A stretch of 56,023 nucleotides of DNA, taken from assembly GCA_028713005.1 (NCBI GenBank), contig JAQTPC010000006.1:1-56023 (forward strand), written 5' to 3'. Positions 30,114 through 51,343 of this stretch are shown here, piece by piece. The first letter of the stretch is position 1. Each line of letters starts with the position of its first letter. A model generated the notes under the pieces. That model had not been told where the DNA came from. It saw only the letters and a list, made by a program, of their open reading frames with translations, and searched no databases. Source of the stretch: Minisyncoccota bacterium. GTDB taxonomy: Bacteria > Patescibacteriota > Minisyncoccia > Phycocordibacterales > PALSA-1337. A program made the position numbers and the translations under genes.

Positions 30114-31824
30114 TTTGTTCGATGACATAGCGCTCATTATATATGATTGAAAAATTTATTTCTCTTGAGAAGACAACGAGCGTAGATTCTGGAAGTTCAG
30201 CGTCCAAGATATGTAGCAATGCTGTTATATCTGCATACCCACTATCGACCCACTGATTATCAACAACGATCAATTGCGGTCGACTAATGATGCAGTGCAG
30301 AGTTTGAACTGCAAATAATAATGTTGGACTATCACTGAAAATTGAGAGCGGTTCGCCGATAAATCTCTTCTTGCTCCGAATCTTAGAAAAAACAGGATAT
30401 TTTTGGCATAGCGTATACACCCGTGCAATATCATCTTCAGTGATTTGCTGCATCTCTTTTGCAAAAATAATCTCACCGATAGTCTTTTCACTATATACGT
30501 GAGGAGCAAAAAAATAACGATTCGCATATTCTTGTGCCCATGTATTCCCATCAACCCTTTTTGCGTCGATCTTCACTACCCAGCCAAGCGGATTGAATAC
30601 TGCATTGCCAGTAAACAGACGTGCAAGAGCCGTCTTACCTGTATACGCCGCACCAGTAAATAAATACCTTTGTCCCCGACGAAGCGAGATAGAGACGCGC
30701 TTCATGTAATTCCCTTCGACAAATAACTTGATCTTATTTGAGATGAATGTGATATGGTTCCACGTATCTTTGTTTATCTGGCGAAGCGATGTTGCGCCCT
30801 CAGGTATAGCGAGAAACAAACCAAGCTTAAGTGGCAACAGATACAAACCTGTCTGAACTGACTCATACAAGAAACGGATAGCATAGAGCGAGATGATCGT
30901 AGCAAGTATAGTAGTAGCCGGGTCATACAAGAACGAAATCAACTCTGGATGAGAAAAGCTAATAATAATAAGGATGCTTGTGGCAGCAAATACCCCCGCA
31001 AAAAATACCCTATTAAGATACCGCAACCAAATATCACGACGTATTCTGAAATAGGTATCAACTCCGACACGAGCATCGAGCGCATCAAGTGCAGATTGCT
31101 CGCCTTGCAAAATCTTTGTGAATGACAGCTCTGAAAGAGTCAAGGTCACGTGACGTATCACCTGAGAGTATGAGGCAACCTCTCGGGAGATGAAATACCG
31201 GGCAATGCCATATGAGATTAGACCAACACAAACTCCTAGGAATACGAGAGCAGCAATGCCGATAATATAATGTGGACCCGCAATAATACTGAGTGATATC
31301 AATACAACAGCCATGATGACCCAACGTACACTGCCCAACAAACTATGATCGACGCCGAGCGATAATAACGGCAGATGATATGATACTTTAGCTATAAAAT
31401 CAGCCTTCTCTTCATTGGTAACTGATGTGTATGAGCGACGTAAAAGCACAGAAAAAAGACGTTTGCGAATATCGTTTATAAGACCGAGGACAAGGGTTCT
31501 TTCAAATTTGATAGTGAGATATGTCACACACAGATAAAGCAATGCGCCACAGAGCACAGAGATAATAAAGACAGATAGTGCTTTTGTATGAAGCGCATAG
31601 TATATCTGTTCGCGAATCGATCCATTGAGAAAGATGAGCACTCCGATTTCAATGATAGCTTGGGCAACTATAAGAGACGGTAGAATAAGGATTGAGCGCG
31701 TATTCTTTTGTAAAAACTGGCGTATATAATGCCAATGATGCCTCTCAAGCCTCATCGGACGGATAGACTGTTTTATGATGCGCCTCTGTTGATACAAGAG
31801 CGCCTGCCTGCCGATATTAAACAT
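30091..31824 (-). CDS. ABC-exporter-like protein (6-TM domain plus degenerate nucleotide-binding domain)
   Basis: The TMD runs from about ILILPSLIVAQAIIEIGVLIF to LGLFLAIPEG. In the NBD, Walker A is intact (GAAYTGKT), the signature is degenerate (LSIFSD), Walker B is LIVVDN (Asn in place of the catalytic Glu), and no H-loop His is recognisable. ATG 31824 overlaps the RT stop by 8 nt (ATGTTTAA). ATG 31755 is an alternative start. Confidence 0.75.
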   Translation of the reverse strand: MFNIGRQALLYQQRRIIKQSIRPMRLERHHWHYIRQFLQKNTRSILILPSLIVAQAIIEIGVLIFLNGSIREQIYYALHTKALSVFIISVLCGALLYLCVTYLTIKFERTLVLGLINDIRKRLFSVLLRRSYTSVTNEEKADFIAKVSYHLPLLSLGVDHSLLGSVRWVIMAVVLISLSIIAGPHYIIGIAALVFLGVCVGLISYGIARYFISREVASYSQVIRHVTLTLSELSFTKILQGEQSALDALDARVGVDTYFRIRRDIWLRYLNRVFFAGVFAATSILIIISFSHPELISFLYDPATTILATIISLYAIRFLYESVQTGLYLLPLKLGLFLAIPEGATSLRQINKDTWNHITFISNKIKLFVEGNYMKRVSISLRRGQRYLFTGAAYTGKTALARLFTGNAVFNPLGWVVKIDAKRVDGNTWAQEYANRYFFAPHVYSEKTIGEIIFAKEMQQITEDDIARVYTLCQKYPVFSKIRSKKRFIGEPLSIFSDSPTLLFAVQTLHCIISRPQLIVVDNQWVDSGYADITALLHILDAELPESTLVVFSREINFSIIYNERYVIEQNEVRLTA

Positions 31825-47490: not shown

Positions 47491-49023
47491 TTACTCTATA
47501 AACGTAATCGCCTTTCCCTTCTTGCCACCACGGCCAGTACGGCCGATACGGTGGATGTAATCTTCATATGTCGCAGGAAGATCATAGTTGATGACATGTG
47601 AGACATCTGACACATCGATACCACGAGCAGCAACATCTGTTGCAACGAGGACCTGGAGATTGTTTTTCTTGAAGAGATCGAGAGCACGCTGACGATGTGA
47701 CTGAGTCTTGTTACCGTGGATTGATTCTGCTTTGAAACCACGAGCGACGAGGAGCTCCTTTAACTTCTCGACACCATGCTTTGTCTTACCGAAAATGAGA
47801 ACCTTTGAGAAATCAGACTGAGTGAGGAGATCCTGGAGAACATCAACTTTGTTCTTACCTTGAACACGGACGATGTCCTGATCAACACTCTTTGCTGTGT
47901 CGCCTGTTTTGACTGAGATAGAAACTGGTGACTTCAAAAAGTCTTTGACGAGCACTTGGATATCACTCGACATGGTCGCAGAGAAGAAGAGTGTCTGACG
48001 TTCAGCTGACATCTTACTCATCATGAAACGCATATCGTGAATGAATCCCATATCGAGCATACGGTCAGCTTCATCGAGAACAACGGTCTTTGTATGAGCG
48101 AGGTCGAGAGCCTTACGTTCCTGGAGATCCTTGAGACGTCCTGGTGTACCGATGACGAAGTTATATGAACGGCGAAGGCCTGAGAGCTGCTTGCCCATAG
48201 GTGAACCACCGACACAAACGACTGAGAATATTGCGAGCATGTTTGCGAAACCACGGAGCTCATCGTCAATCTGAGTAGCGAGCTCACGAGTAGGAACCAT
48301 GATAATGATCTTTTGACTGCGATCCTTGAGGACCTTATCTATGAGTGGTATGAGAAATGCCGCTGTCTTACCGGTACCAGTGTTCGCAATACCAACGACA
48401 TCAGATCCTTTGAGGACATGAGGGATGGCACGATCTTGGATAGGAGTTGGGTTGACGTAACCTTTCTTGACGATATTGGCCTTGAGCTTATCGTCTATGA
48501 GAAAATCGATGAATGCATGTTCAGGCTTGAAAACTTCCACCTCTTCGGTGATGACTGCCTTATTGACGAATTTTGAGATATCACGGAATGACTTCTGTGC
48601 GAAACCACCACGACCTCCTCCACGTGAACCGCCACCACGATTGCCTTGATAACCACCAGACTTTGGTCCCGCTTTGTATCCGCCACCGAAAGATGACTTA
48701 CCTTTGTATCCTCCACCAAAAGATGGGCGATCACCATGAGAGCCATGTCCACCGAATGAAGACTTACCCTTGTAACCGCCACCAAACGCTGGCTTTGGAC
48801 TATTTGCAAAACCGGTACCAGGAGTACTGGTTGTCTGATATTTCTTGAATTGAGGTTTGCCAAATGAAGGACTAGCAAAACGCTTTGGTCCGCCAAAACT
48901 TTTGTTTGCATGACCTGCATGAAAAGGACGTCCGCCTGTTGGGCGGTGCGATGATCCTCCTGCTTTATGTGCTCCACTAGAAGCTTTGTTATCTTTACCG
49001 GGCATGTGATTTAGTCTCAACAT
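47491..49023 (-). CDS. DEAD-box ATP-dependent RNA helicase with an N-terminal Gly/Lys/Arg-rich low-complexity region
   Basis: Q motif GYVNPTPIQ, motif I ANTGTGKT, then PTRELA, DEAD, SAT, ARGID and HRIGRTGRGG. The N-terminus has FGGGYKGKSSFGG-type repeats. Confidence 0.9.
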   Translation of the reverse strand: MLRLNHMPGKDNKASSGAHKAGGSSHRPTGGRPFHAGHANKSFGGPKRFASPSFGKPQFKKYQTTSTPGTGFANSPKPAFGGGYKGKSSFGGHGSHGDRPSFGGGYKGKSSFGGGYKAGPKSGGYQGNRGGGSRGGGRGGFAQKSFRDISKFVNKAVITEEVEVFKPEHAFIDFLIDDKLKANIVKKGYVNPTPIQDRAIPHVLKGSDVVGIANTGTGKTAAFLIPLIDKVLKDRSQKIIIMVPTRELATQIDDELRGFANMLAIFSVVCVGGSPMGKQLSGLRRSYNFVIGTPGRLKDLQERKALDLAHTKTVVLDEADRMLDMGFIHDMRFMMSKMSAERQTLFFSATMSSDIQVLVKDFLKSPVSISVKTGDTAKSVDQDIVRVQGKNKVDVLQDLLTQSDFSKVLIFGKTKHGVEKLKELLVARGFKAESIHGNKTQSHRQRALDLFKKNNLQVLVATDVAARGIDVSDVSHVINYDLPATYEDYIHRIGRTGRGGKKGKAITFIE

Positions 49024-49069
49024 AATATACTATGTGCAGGAAAATGTCAAGGATTTACTCTGTTTACAT

Positions 49070-49239
49070 AAAAAAACACCCTGAGCCGAAGCAACAGGAT
49101 GCTGATAAGATTTACGTCATTCATGTTGGACGCCTGCGTGCACACAGGACTAAATAGGCATTGCCTACTGGGATGGCTAAACGAGCTTTGTCCTCGCATC
49201 CCTAGGACTCTCTGGACGCAATATAATGAACTTCACTAC
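49070..49239 (-). ncRNA. Candidate small RNA of about 170 nt (promoter to terminator), class unknown
   Basis: The minus-strand promoter has TTGACA (49273..49268), a 16-nt spacer and TATACT (49251..49246). Internal hairpins are GGGAUG...CAUCCC, UAGGC-AAU-GCCUA and CCUGUG-UGCA-CGCAGG. It ends in a UUCG-loop hairpin followed by a U7 run (49098..49070). Confidence 0.3.
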
Positions 49240-49350
49240 AGGATTAGTATAGCATACCCCACAGATTTGTCAAGTACTTTTATCTATGTTTTAATATAAT
49301 CAGCAAAAAATGGCTTAGAATAAAGATTAAATAGAATTCACATCAAGGAT

Positions 49351-49378
49351 TTGACACTGAAATCCAATCCAATATACT
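49351..49378 (+). promoter_or_regulatory. Near-consensus promoter P1 (TTGACA, 16 nt, TATACT)
   Basis: Read directly at 49351..49356 and 49373..49378. Confidence 0.5.
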
Positions 49379-49384
49379 TTTTTG

Positions 49385-49437
49385 TCAGGCCTTACGGCTC
49401 CGAGATTCCCCCACAATTTACGGGGGTTTCGTTTTAT
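49385..49437 (+). ncRNA. Candidate small RNA copy 1: 20-nt core, GC hairpin, U-rich tail
   Basis: The core TCAGGCCTTACGGCTCCGAG (49385..49404) is identical to 49559..49578. The hairpin is CCCCC-acaatttac-GGGGG (49408..49426), followed by TTTCGTTTTATT. Confidence 0.45.
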
Positions 49438-49439
49438 TA

Positions 49440-49467
49440 TTGACACCTTCTATTATTTTGCTAATAT
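49440..49467 (+). promoter_or_regulatory. Promoter-like P2 (TTGACA, 16 nt, TAATAT)
   Basis: Read directly. Downstream lie two tetraloop mini-hairpins, GGC-TTCG-GCC and CCTC-GCAA-GAGG. Confidence 0.35.
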
Positions 49468-49521
49468 TTATCTACAAGTGGCTTCGGCCTCGCCTCGCAA
49501 GAGGTAAACAGAAAGAAAGTC

Positions 49522-49550
49522 TTGACCTCAAAATACGACTTTGGTAATAT
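49522..49550 (+). promoter_or_regulatory. Promoter-like P3 (TTGACC, 17 nt, TAATAT)
   Basis: Read directly. It faces the 3' end of the MazF-like gene. Confidence 0.45.
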
Positions 49551-49556
49551 TGATCA

Positions 49557-49608
49557 CATCAGGCCTTACGGCTCCGAGGCTCCGGGAAACCGGAGCCGAT
49601 TCGTTTAT
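49557..49608 (+). ncRNA. Candidate small RNA copy 2, antisense to the stop codon and last codons of the MazF-like gene
   Basis: The same 20-nt core lies at 49559..49578. The hairpin is GGCTCCGG-GAAA-CCGGAGCC (49578..49597), followed by GATTCGTTTAT. It shares TTCGTTT with copy 1. Confidence 0.45.
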
Positions 49609-49987
49609 GGTGAATCCCATCGAGGCGTCTCATGACCCATTCGTGTTGGAACATATTAATCTTATATAACTTCCTCTGAAGTCTCTTTGCACTTATCGTC
49701 CTTGAATGAGACAAAATAACCCATCCCTGCACACCATGGTATTCCAACTTAGTATGAAAACGATCATTCTTTATTTTACTTGTCAGAGGGGCAACTCGTA
49801 TCGAGTGCTTATTAAATACCTGTAAAACCAAAACTGGTCGTTCAAGTAATTCATTCTTACCACTTGTCTCAGTTCCGATATTCGCACCGATAGAACACCA
49901 CCATAGTTCTCTTTCATTACAAAAAACTGGAGCTCTTCTTTCTAGAGTCTGCTTTAGTTTATTCCAATTATCAAAATCTTTTATCAT
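49559..49987 (-). CDS. PemK/MazF-like toxin-fold protein with no adjacent protein antitoxin gene
   Basis: MIKDFDNWNKLKQTLERR...RELWWCSIGANIGTETSGKNELLERPVLVLQVF...RVAPLTSK...ILSHSRTISAKRL matches the layout of the roughly 140-aa MazF-like family. Confidence 0.7.
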   Translation of the reverse strand: MIKDFDNWNKLKQTLERRAPVFCNERELWWCSIGANIGTETSGKNELLERPVLVLQVFNKHSIRVAPLTSKIKNDRFHTKLEYHGVQGWVILSHSRTISAKRLQRKLYKINMFQHEWVMRRLDGIHHKRIGSGFPEPRSRKA

Positions 49988-50002
49988 ATAAAATAATCAA
50001 TT

Positions 50003-50024
50003 AAAAAACTGTCCCGAGGGACAA
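50003..50024 (-). terminator. Intrinsic terminator of the flavoprotein gene
   Basis: The minus strand reads TGTCC-ctcg-GGACA followed by GTTTTTTAATT. Confidence 0.65.
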
Positions 50025-50071
50025 TTTAATATTGATACGAGAAATTATACTCTTTCTATTTTACAGAGCAA

Positions 50072-51343
50072 CTAATTCATCACCTCCCCTCCTGCTACAT
50101 ACCCTGTCGTCCAACAGAGTTGAAGCGAATACCCGCCCGATGGACGGTTGATATGAAGCAAATCGCCTGTGACATACAAATTCTCCACCACCTTTGACTG
50201 CATCGTTCTCATATCTATTTCTTCCAAAGATACGCCACCATCAGACACAACTGCCCTATCATCGCCCATAAGTGAAGTAATAGTAACCGGTAATTTTTTC
50301 AATAAATGAACTAGTTTCTTGCGCTCCTCAACTCGAACATCATTCACTTGTTTATTTAGATCAATTAGATTGATTTGGTTAATTAAAAATTCTACACCCT
50401 TCGACATGCCAGCAGGCACGATCTCACTCAACACATTCTTAACTATCTTATTTTTATTCTCATCGAACACGCCGATAATACGCTTCTCGAAAGCGCCCAA
50501 ATCTTCACTCGGAAATGGGTCGATGATTGCCGTAACCTCACCTGCGGGAAGCAAATCAGCAACAGTAGAAGCGCTGTTCAGTATGAGCGGACCTGACAAA
50601 CCAAAATGAGTAAAGAGGAGTCGTCCTTTCTTTGAAAAATCTTTGACACCATCTACATAAAAAGTGATCTTCATATCTTCGAGAGTGGTACCGGCGAGCT
50701 TTTTTGACCATTCATCCTCGACAGCGAGAGGTACGATGGAAGGAGTTGGGGCGACAACAGTATGCCCAAGATCTCGAAGCCAGTTAAAGCCATCTCCTGT
50801 TGAGCCTGTTTCCTTGTGCGATGCACCGCCAGTAGCGAAGATGAACTTCTTGGCAAAATATTCTTGAGCACCACAGTTAACAGATACAACAACTTTGCCC
50901 TCCTTGTTAACTTTCGTCACCGCAGAACCAGTCTTTATTTCTACCCCACCCTCCTTCACATATTTCTCAAGCACATTGTACACATCGAGTGCTTTATGAC
51001 TCGCAGGAAATGCACGCTTACGTTCTTCAACTACCAAGGGTAGGCCTCGGCTTTCAAAAAAGCTAAATGTATCTTTTACCCCAAACTTTTCAAATACAGA
51101 AAAGAGGAACTTGCCTGCATCACCATAATATTTCAACAGCTCACGAATGTCATATTCAGCATTGGTGATATTACAACGACCACCACCAGTGATCTTGAGC
51201 TTTTCGCCCATTTTTTTATTTTTCTCAAGCAATAAAACTCGCCCGACTTTTCCATTTTGTTTAAATGATTCAGCTGCACGCCCCGCAGCCATGAGGCCAG
51301 AGGCGCCGCCACCAACAACTATAACGTCATAAATTTCATTCAT
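50072..51343 (-). CDS. HI0933/BaiN-like NAD(P)/FAD-dependent oxidoreductase
   Basis: YDVIVVGGGASGLMAAGRAAE, ITGGGRCNITN and the C-terminal GGYSLQLCWTTGYVAG are present. Confidence 0.9.
   Translation of the reverse strand: MNEIYDVIVVGGGASGLMAAGRAAESFKQNGKVGRVLLLEKNKKMGEKLKITGGGRCNITNAEYDIRELLKYYGDAGKFLFSVFEKFGVKDTFSFFESRGLPLVVEERKRAFPASHKALDVYNVLEKYVKEGGVEIKTGSAVTKVNKEGKVVVSVNCGAQEYFAKKFIFATGGASHKETGSTGDGFNWLRDLGHTVVAPTPSIVPLAVEDEWSKKLAGTTLEDMKITFYVDGVKDFSKKGRLLFTHFGLSGPLILNSASTVADLLPAGEVTAIIDPFPSEDLGAFEKRIIGVFDENKNKIVKNVLSEIVPAGMSKGVEFLINQINLIDLNKQVNDVRVEERKKLVHLLKKLPVTITSLMGDDRAVVSDGGVSLEEIDMRTMQSKVVENLYVTGDLLHINRPSGGYSLQLCWTTGYVAGGEVMN

Follow-up and report, generated by a model that had tools for sequence, protein, structure and literature searches.

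What restrains a MazF-like toxin beside which no protein antitoxin gene is found? Among type II toxins MazF is the textbook example, and what defines it as one is the protein antitoxin MazE. The question is raised by a locus in DNA from a Minisyncoccota bacterium (GenBank assembly GCA_028713005.1, contig JAQTPC010000006.1, positions 1 to 56,023 of the forward strand); this whole stretch of 56,023 nucleotides (nt) is referred to here as the window. An original prediction, made from the letters of the window, had described at 49351-49987 two paralogous small RNA (sRNA) units that share a 20-nt core antisense to the stop region of an orphan MazF-like gene, and had proposed that such RNAs are the partners of the toxin in a type I/III-like arrangement. 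Comparative evidence strongly supports such a partnership: the pairing of toxin and RNA genes in relatives, the toxin tree, covariation, the pattern of gene decay and a homologue on the Campylobacter plasmid pVir all point to it. Because the pairing recurs at ~100 related loci, the RNAs are most likely the antidotes of the toxin, and from the genome comparisons we consider it probable that they are dedicated antidotes or regulators of some kind. The best explanation of the locus as a whole, which we offer tentatively, is that three ~50-nt RNA genes are antidote partners of a MazF-fold RNase encoded on the minus strand and act by a two-handed mechanism.

We asked if the predicted MazF/PemK-like open reading frame (ORF) is what it seems. 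As judged by sequence and structure model, the 142-amino-acid ORF at 49559-49987 on the minus strand is a true MazF-fold RNase with conserved catalytic Arg and Thr; Pfam, profile alignment and fold matches concur. It matched the Pfam family PemK_toxin (PF02452) with an E value of 3.8e-10 and 40.4 bits (cut-off 23.1; 40.7 bits in the Pfam search of the genome, where it is the sole PemK-family gene). A profile of the window toxin and 19 homologues, searched against the PDB, recovered B. subtilis EndoA/MazF, S. aureus MazF, Kid and E. coli MazF (best E 1e-6). In these alignments the invariant R50-P51 falls on the RPVLV motif and the near-invariant T69 on the AAIT motif, which supply the catalytic Arg and Thr (R25 and T48 in B. 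subtilis MazF). An AlphaFold2 model (pLDDT 75.5) has an extra N-terminal helix bearing a DFDxWN motif, and the top 50 Foldseek matches to it in the PDB were all MazF, with TM-scores of up to 0.77 on the target. Residues 129-142, the tail encoded antisense to one of the RNA units (unit 2 below), are predicted to be disordered. A ToxN-like toxin, suspected from an APLTSK motif, was ruled out, as Pfam returned PemK only and the fold matches were all MazF. PADLOC gave no relevant match.

The predicted absence of a neighbouring protein antitoxin was borne out. The 84 nt upstream of the toxin contain only a terminator-like hairpin, which lies after the HI0933-like gene and ahead of the start codon of the toxin (50006-50027, minus strand; -15.6 kcal/mol, z -5.5), and no antitoxin ORF was found there. 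At related loci, 90 small upstream ORFs formed only three tiny clusters, with no conserved protein partner among them; an upstream protein antitoxin is thereby ruled out at the window and at ~90 related loci. Since no promoter of the toxin on the minus strand is among those that the scan listed, the gene is probably expressed at a low level by read-through.

On the opposite strand, the 20-mer TCAGGCCTTACGGCTCCGAG occurs at 49385-49404 and 49559-49578, exactly as predicted. These are the sole matches in the window at up to three mismatches (0 expected, from 100 shuffles), and a search of the whole genome (840,691 bp) returned the same two sites and no others, which rules out a dispersed repeat. 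Promoters were scored by a consensus scan as matches out of 12 to a sigma-70-like pattern (TTGACA and a -10 box), and the region contained nine promoter-like sites compared with 3.2 +/- 1.5 in shuffles. Three of them, all on the plus strand, head the RNA units: TTGACA-16-TATACT at 49351-49378 (11/12) for unit 1, TTGACA-16-TAATAT at 49440-49467 (10/12, TG-extended) for a middle unit and TTGACC-17-TAATAT at 49522-49550 (9/12, TG-extended) for unit 2. The -10 box precedes the core by 6 nt in unit 1 and 8 nt in unit 2; the original prediction gave ~7 nt for both.

Units 1 and 2 belong to what we call class A and share one predicted fold, in which a 4-bp hairpin P1 (GGCC-UUAC-GGCU) is followed after 1 nt by a longer hairpin P2. 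Unit 1 (49379-49438) scored 63.0 bits with R1, a covariance model of this class, ends in a U-rich tail and is without a toxin gene of its own; its P1 lies at 49388-49399, and its P2 consists of a base, CGAGA (49401-49405) paired with UUUCG (49427-49431), and a top, CCCCC (49408-49412) paired with GGGGG (49422-49426). Unit 2 (49553-49610) is a class A variant with 47.5 bits, P1 at 49562-49573 and a P2 at 49578-49597, GGCUCCGG-GAAA-CCGGAGCC with base CGA/UCG, that is also listed as a terminator-like site in the scan. Folding energies were -17.5 kcal/mol (z -2.1) for unit 1 and -24.0 kcal/mol (z -2.8) for unit 2. The original prediction had placed GC hairpins of different sequence at equal distances from the two cores. 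The common architecture with wholly unlike tops, CCCCC/GGGGG in one and GGCUCCGG-GAAA-CCGGAGCC in the other, does hold, whereas the distances are unequal: the differing hairpin starts 3 nt past the core in unit 1 and on the last base of the core in unit 2. The TTCGTTT tail described for both copies is indeed shared, with the correction that its TTCG is the 3′ half of the P2 base, since the common (U)UUCG pairs with the common CGAG(A).

The third promoter-like element, also noticed at the outset, is predicted to drive a third sRNA, of a sister class. This middle unit (49474-49520, plus strand) has a 5′ module of class B type, an exact match to the class-B pattern ACAARYGSCTTCGGSC, with the leader ACAAGUG, P1 GGC-UUCG-GCC (49480-49489), P2 GCCUC-GCAA-GAGGU (49492-49505) and an A-rich tail. 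It gives blastn matches beside MazF-like genes of relatives. Because it lacks a terminator of its own, its transcript probably runs on into unit 2. As for the toxin, unit 2 is antisense to its last 17 codons and stop, the TGA being the complement of 49559-49561, the first three bases of the second 20-mer copy. The capacity of unit 1 to pair in trans was also confirmed by computation: the shared core would let it form a ~21-bp duplex with the same stretch of the toxin mRNA.

We then asked if homologous MazF-like genes have such units. The intergenic region of the window was searched with blastn against 60 related genomes, ~95 MazF-like loci were taken and the strand opposite the toxin was inspected. 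Short matches to unit 1, unit 2 and the stretch after the third promoter lay nearly all just downstream of, and convergent to, MazF-like genes. The units follow a general plan of a TTGACA-17-TAtAAT promoter, a leader of ~7 nt, a GC mini-hairpin P1 with a UUCG or GNRA loop and a variable continuation. After P1, class A (window units 1 and 2) has UCCGAG and a terminator hairpin; class B (the middle unit of the window) has a 2-4-nt linker, a small P2 (e.g. CCCUC-GCAA-GAGGG), an A-rich linker and a bidirectional terminator containing the toxin stop; further variants make up classes C and D. A strict detector requiring promoter, P1 and P2 found a convergent unit at 45 of the 84 loci evaluable in these relatives, compared with 2/84 on the toxin strand and 0/84 in shuffles. 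When the 39 negatives were inspected, ~34 proved to have a unit with a weaker promoter or of another class, and five had a sense-strand leader form, so that ~79 of 84 homologous loci carry a convergent unit at the toxin stop codon. In the five others (class E; L088, L090, L098, L101 and L103), which form a single toxin clade with 100% support, there is no convergent unit; a two-hairpin element (CGCC-GUAA-GGCG, UCAACA, GGCCUC-GCAA-GAGGUC) lies on the toxin strand between promoter and toxin start, ~60-90 nt upstream of the latter. Two of these five toxin genes are truncated.

The association extends beyond close relatives. The toxin is carried by 34 of 300 genomes (~11%) in an even sample of the phylum, with up to six copies per genome in this genus, and of 15 distant loci, which belong to other families of the phylum, at least 13 have a convergent unit. 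Searches that started from the RNA gave a similar picture: 22 of the 30 best R1 matches genome-wide were convergent with a MazF-like gene at most 125 nt away. R1 matches below ~21 bits were discarded as generic terminators (L118, L120, L122-L126). The MAFFT alignment of class B was structurally inconsistent for P2 and terminator, and an IUPAC pattern search was used instead; of its 31 exact matches, 23 were convergent with a MazF-like gene, all within ~110 nt. At locus L110, where the toxin is 84% identical and the HI0933-toxin-helicase synteny is kept, the middle unit and unit 2 are present and unit 1 is absent. L111 (toxin 73% identical, other neighbourhood) has an RNA resembling unit 2, in which P2 shows compensatory changes and the position of the stop codon is unchanged. 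Unit 2 is kept with compensatory changes at both loci, and the overlap of the unit with the stop codon is conserved in relatives. Some loci carry more than one module: L031 (G002:C11) has two complete class-B units beside one toxin, and in L051, L077, L092, L105 and L048 two P1-P2 modules lie in one predicted transcript. The modules doubled within one transcript recall the repeat arrays of type III antitoxins.

Is the conserved entity an RNA, a peptide or the tail of the toxin? In an alignment of 38 matches to R1, which was built on class A, 89% of cells were paired and 53 double-sided changes were counted compared with 16.7 in shuffles (0/500); slid controls collapsed. The stems contain many G-U pairs, which work only on the strand of the unit, and the structure is placed there; likewise, it is only when read along that strand that the loops are UUCG or GNRA. 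Close homologues of the toxin use three different reading frames across the antisense of P1 (PRSRKA in the window, LGA(V/R)RPD and ASEPEG), and what is conserved in that stretch is therefore the nucleotide sequence of an RNA gene, not a protein tail. On this comparison, the constraint is on the RNA and not on the C-terminal tail of the toxin. Rfam 15 gave no match at gathering score in the window, only chance-level matches at E up to 10 in 48950-50100 and none on the units of 20 related loci. A 'pemK RNA motif' was reportedly described by Weinberg et al. in 2017; the main text of that paper makes no mention of it, and no Rfam model matched.

The remaining coding possibility, that the units encode small peptides acting as protein antitoxins, draws on short ORFs that span both 20-mer copies in the same frame (VRPYGSE and IRPYGSE) and on an AUG or GUG directly before P1 in many class-B units. 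However, the short ORFs of the window begin within the -35 box, at its TTG, ACG occupies the start position in a third of the exact class-B matches, and stem indels and compensatory double changes break the frames yet keep the pairing. Peptide-coding units are ruled out on these grounds, and we regard this reading as scarcely credible.

Homologues of the window toxin are also found on plasmids. A tblastn search of plasmids with the toxin gave 46 records, 45 of them from Campylobacterota. The match on pVir (NC_008770.1, 30655-30864; E 8e-10, 40% identity over residues 5-74) falls in a gene annotated as a PemK/MazF-family toxin (30634-31038, plus strand), next to which no protein antitoxin is annotated. 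On the opposite strand, pVir encodes CJpv3, an sRNA of 77 nt running from 31119 to 31043 that was detected by Northern blot (Dugar et al, 2013, Table S12, PMC3656092). CJpv3 is convergent to the PemK/MazF gene, and its 3′ end lies 5 nt past the stop codon of that gene. A later paper cites the pVir RNA cjrA as an experimentally validated type I antitoxin; from the coordinates, we infer that its partner cjpT is the PemK-like gene beside CJpv3 (CJJ81176_pVir0047). The homologue on a Nitratiruptor plasmid likewise has a convergent promoter and two-hairpin unit.

If the RNA serves the toxin, the two should have evolved together. RNA class clusters on the toxin tree, with 14 changes compared with 42.2 in shuffles (0/200). 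The window toxin is placed in a class-A clade, and units 1 and 2 are therefore of its cognate class, while the class of the middle unit goes with another toxin clade. Where toxin genes have decayed, the RNA has tended to stay behind. Among the other R1 and class-B matches, most of the true units adjoin toxin remnants, such as an N-terminal stub at L117 and a C-terminal half at L130; at L129, L137 and L131 the unit lies beside the last few dozen bases of a toxin gene, and at L114 an orphan unit lies beside a truncated or deleted one. No intact toxin without an RNA element was seen among the inspected loci.

A few units have other neighbours. At L115 (G055:C2, unit at locus positions 956-1013) a well-formed class-A unit that has a promoter of its own faces, in place of a MazF-like gene, a convergent gene for an NYN-domain (PIN-like RNase) protein (ORF 306-869; Pfam NYN, E 1.9e-12). 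At L112 (ORF 1123-1524), L128 (ORF 70-438) and L138 (ORF 321-674) units lie beside genes for a family of ~120-133 amino acids with the pattern '...KGFNHL...R...LL.H', convergent in two loci and co-directional downstream in one. The L112 protein, the one member scanned, had no Pfam match; the family may be a second partner toxin family.

These neighbours bear on an alternative in which the RNA is a client or cofactor that the RNase processes, senses or uses, so that the locus would be an RNA-processing or defence module and not a toxin-antitoxin pair. The units at the NYN-domain gene and at the three KGFNHL genes would suit it, and co-inheritance with class-specific co-diversification is equally expected for an enzyme and its dedicated substrate. 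The decay pattern, in which the RNA is kept while the toxin is lost and never the reverse, speaks for an antidote, since an antidote predicts this asymmetry and a substrate does not. The MazF fold is moreover ordinary and its catalytic residues intact, and the homologue on pVir faces CJpv3, on the plasmid whose cjrA is cited as a validated RNA antitoxin. We consider the client alternative improbable.

It could also be asked if the RNAs matter at all. Strong promoters face the toxin gene and hairpins are shared, and convergent promoters with a shared bidirectional terminator might damp the toxin by transcriptional interference alone, without any stable functional RNA. Against this, P1 and P2 are preserved by covariation as helices of RNA whose G-U pairs are strand-specific and whose tetraloops are stable, unit 1 and the middle unit face no gene, and the homologous pVir unit yields a discrete 77-nt RNA on Northern blots. 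Interference alone is, in our judgement, very unlikely.

How might antidote RNAs act here? We propose that each RNA would be transcribed from its strong sigma-70-type promoter. As the toxin gene lies behind a terminator and without a listed promoter, an excess of the RNA is expected. The constant 5′ module (leader, P1, linker and P2 base) would be recognised by the toxin protein, and the bound RNA would keep this protein inactive by serving as a decoy or pseudo-substrate, as in type III systems. The variable 3′ hairpin over the toxin stop region would serve both as a shared terminator and as a perfect antisense of the 3′ end of the toxin mRNA; the duplex of unit 2 with that mRNA, predicted at ~52 bp, would add type I-like control of the message. 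Unit 2 would then be the copy that overlaps the toxin gene and is cognate to it; unit 1 would be a further copy of class A that works in trans, and the middle unit a class-B module.

The first of these two hands, binding to the protein, we rate as possible, perhaps almost even in likelihood. It is favoured by three observations: the most conserved part of the RNA, leader and P1, lies outside the toxin overlap in class B, where both RNAs end at the shared bidirectional terminator; some transcripts contain several modules; and class E is in sense orientation. We also compared the pairing of sRNA 5′ modules with toxin start regions. Cognate pairs were no better than non-cognate pairs (means of -16.8 and -16.6 kcal/mol, p 0.89); pairing with the toxin translation start is rejected on this result, which favours protein binding.

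The second hand might suffice. RNAs acting purely as type I-like antisense, unit 2 in cis and unit 1 in trans via the 20-mer, would form duplexes that lead to cleavage, mRNA decay or a non-stop message, outcomes reported for 3′-overlapping type I systems, and P1 would provide RNA stability. The whole of unit 2 is overlapped and unit 1 could form its ~21-bp duplex at the same site, and class B sRNA and toxin share bidirectional A-tract/U-tract terminators. Yet cis-antisense needs no conservation, whereas leader and P1 are the most conserved part, outside the class B overlap and across divergent paralogues. Multi-module transcripts and the sense leader of class E are unable to act as antisense, and the middle unit has no complementarity to the window toxin mRNA. 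A purely antisense mode appears rather unlikely to us.

Several points nevertheless weigh against the two-handed antidote explanation that we prefer. Antisense is favoured by the convergent overlap, which reaches the toxin stop at nearly all loci, and by the type I label of cjrA/cjpT, the one relative that has been studied, and the conservation of P1 could serve RNA stability instead of protein binding. Co-diversification and adjacency could reflect plain linkage within a duplicating module. Here the middle unit lacks both a terminator and a cognate toxin, and for ~34 of the ~79 convergent units the classification was made by eye.

A more far-reaching form of the two-handed explanation, which is speculative and in our view doubtful, would have the locus represent a hybrid type I/III class across bacteria of the Candidate Phyla Radiation (CPR), or Patescibacteria. 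The RNA module would dock in the RNA groove of the toxin as an uncleavable pseudo-substrate, and the 3′ hairpin would combine antisense with shared termination. Tandem arrays that include a class-B unit, in a genome that has no class-B toxin, would form an 'immunity repertoire' against mobile-element toxins of other clades.

The locus is one member of a large RNA-toxin family of CPR bacteria that lacks annotation. Systems in which a convergent sRNA accompanies a PemK/MazF toxin are barely characterised; this one has three tandem sRNA genes of two classes, and an RNA antidote arrangement is almost undescribed for the MazF family. Databases label every member of this MazF subfamily 'type II'. 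If a clade of MazF RNases is indeed under sRNA control, the toxin fold is separable from the type of antitoxin; annotation pipelines miss the antitoxin at every such locus, including those in the ~11% of sampled phylum genomes and on Campylobacterota plasmids; and a ~50-nt RNA becomes a candidate natural inhibitor of a MazF nuclease. The locus is also a case in which to study how a single antitoxin can join antisense action with protein binding, and adds an RNA family absent from Rfam.

Two further features were noticed near the locus and its relatives. On the minus strand, just upstream of the DEAD-box helicase gene, a stand-alone unit of ~175-200 nt (49065-49273) has a TTGACA-16-TATACT promoter at one end (49273-49246) and at the other a terminator that carries a UUCG loop and a U7 run; the syntenic L110 lacks this unit. 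The stretch around this promoter, ataccccacagatttgtcaagtacttttatctatgt (49225-49281), has blastn matches in over 10 related genomes and at one further site of its own genome (G000:C10:17735-17788), and may represent a promoter or an sRNA 5′ element that is repeated. Within it is the word TTTTATCT, which is also found upstream of many toxin genes. The second feature is a set of recurrent direct repeats, such as ATTTTATC, TTCTTGAACA and GGATTTTATCTCG, within 150 nt upstream of many MazF-like genes (e.g. L018, L024, L026, L038, L039, L087 and L102). They directly precede a -10-like box and a very short leader, are vestigial in the window (gattattttatATG) and could be a shared operator or an unusual toxin promoter.

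We finally compared the locus with known toxin-antitoxin types. With the type II systems MazEF and PemIK (Kis-Kid) it shares the toxin fold and the catalytic Arg and Thr, and NCBI labels the homologues 'type II toxin-antitoxin system PemK/MazF family toxin'. It differs in that no MazE, PemI or other protein antitoxin gene lies upstream or adjacent, in the window or at the ~90 related loci, and in the extra N-terminal helix with its DFDxWN motif. Convergent type I systems with 3′ overlap include par of pAD1 (fst/RNA II) and txpA/RatA and bsrG/SR4 of B. subtilis. Like them, the locus has a convergent small RNA over the 3′ end of the toxin gene (unit 2), a shared bidirectional terminator and a strong antitoxin promoter. 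The toxins of those systems, however, are small hydrophobic membrane peptides, whereas the window toxin is a soluble MazF-fold RNase of 142 amino acids, and the conserved part of the RNA is here the non-overlapping part.

The type III systems ToxIN, CptIN and TenpIN (PMC3401426, PMC5086642) resemble the locus in combining an endoribonuclease of Kid/MazF-like fold with a structured RNA partner, by which control is here predicted, and in their tandem RNA modules (three units here, two per transcript in some relatives). Class E relatives also resemble them in having an RNA module upstream in sense orientation. Unlike the ToxN/AbiQ, CptN and TenpN families, the window toxin belongs to PemK in Pfam and its top 50 fold matches are MazF. 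The RNA genes of the window also differ from a type III array, upstream on the same strand and made of near-identical repeats of one precursor: they are convergent, have their own promoters and share only the 20-nt core, and an upstream sense element occurs only in the five class E relatives. The locus is also alike in layout to the pVir pair taken to be cjrA/cjpT, which has a homologous toxin, no adjacent annotated protein antitoxin and a convergent small-RNA gene at the toxin stop. No common sequence is detectable between the pVir sRNA and the CPR RNAs, and the latter, unlike the former, have a conserved leader, a UUCG or GNRA mini-hairpin, a second hairpin and classes that follow toxin clades. 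In the window, again unlike pVir, three tandem sRNA genes accompany one toxin, and the toxin ORF spans the whole of its cognate sRNA.

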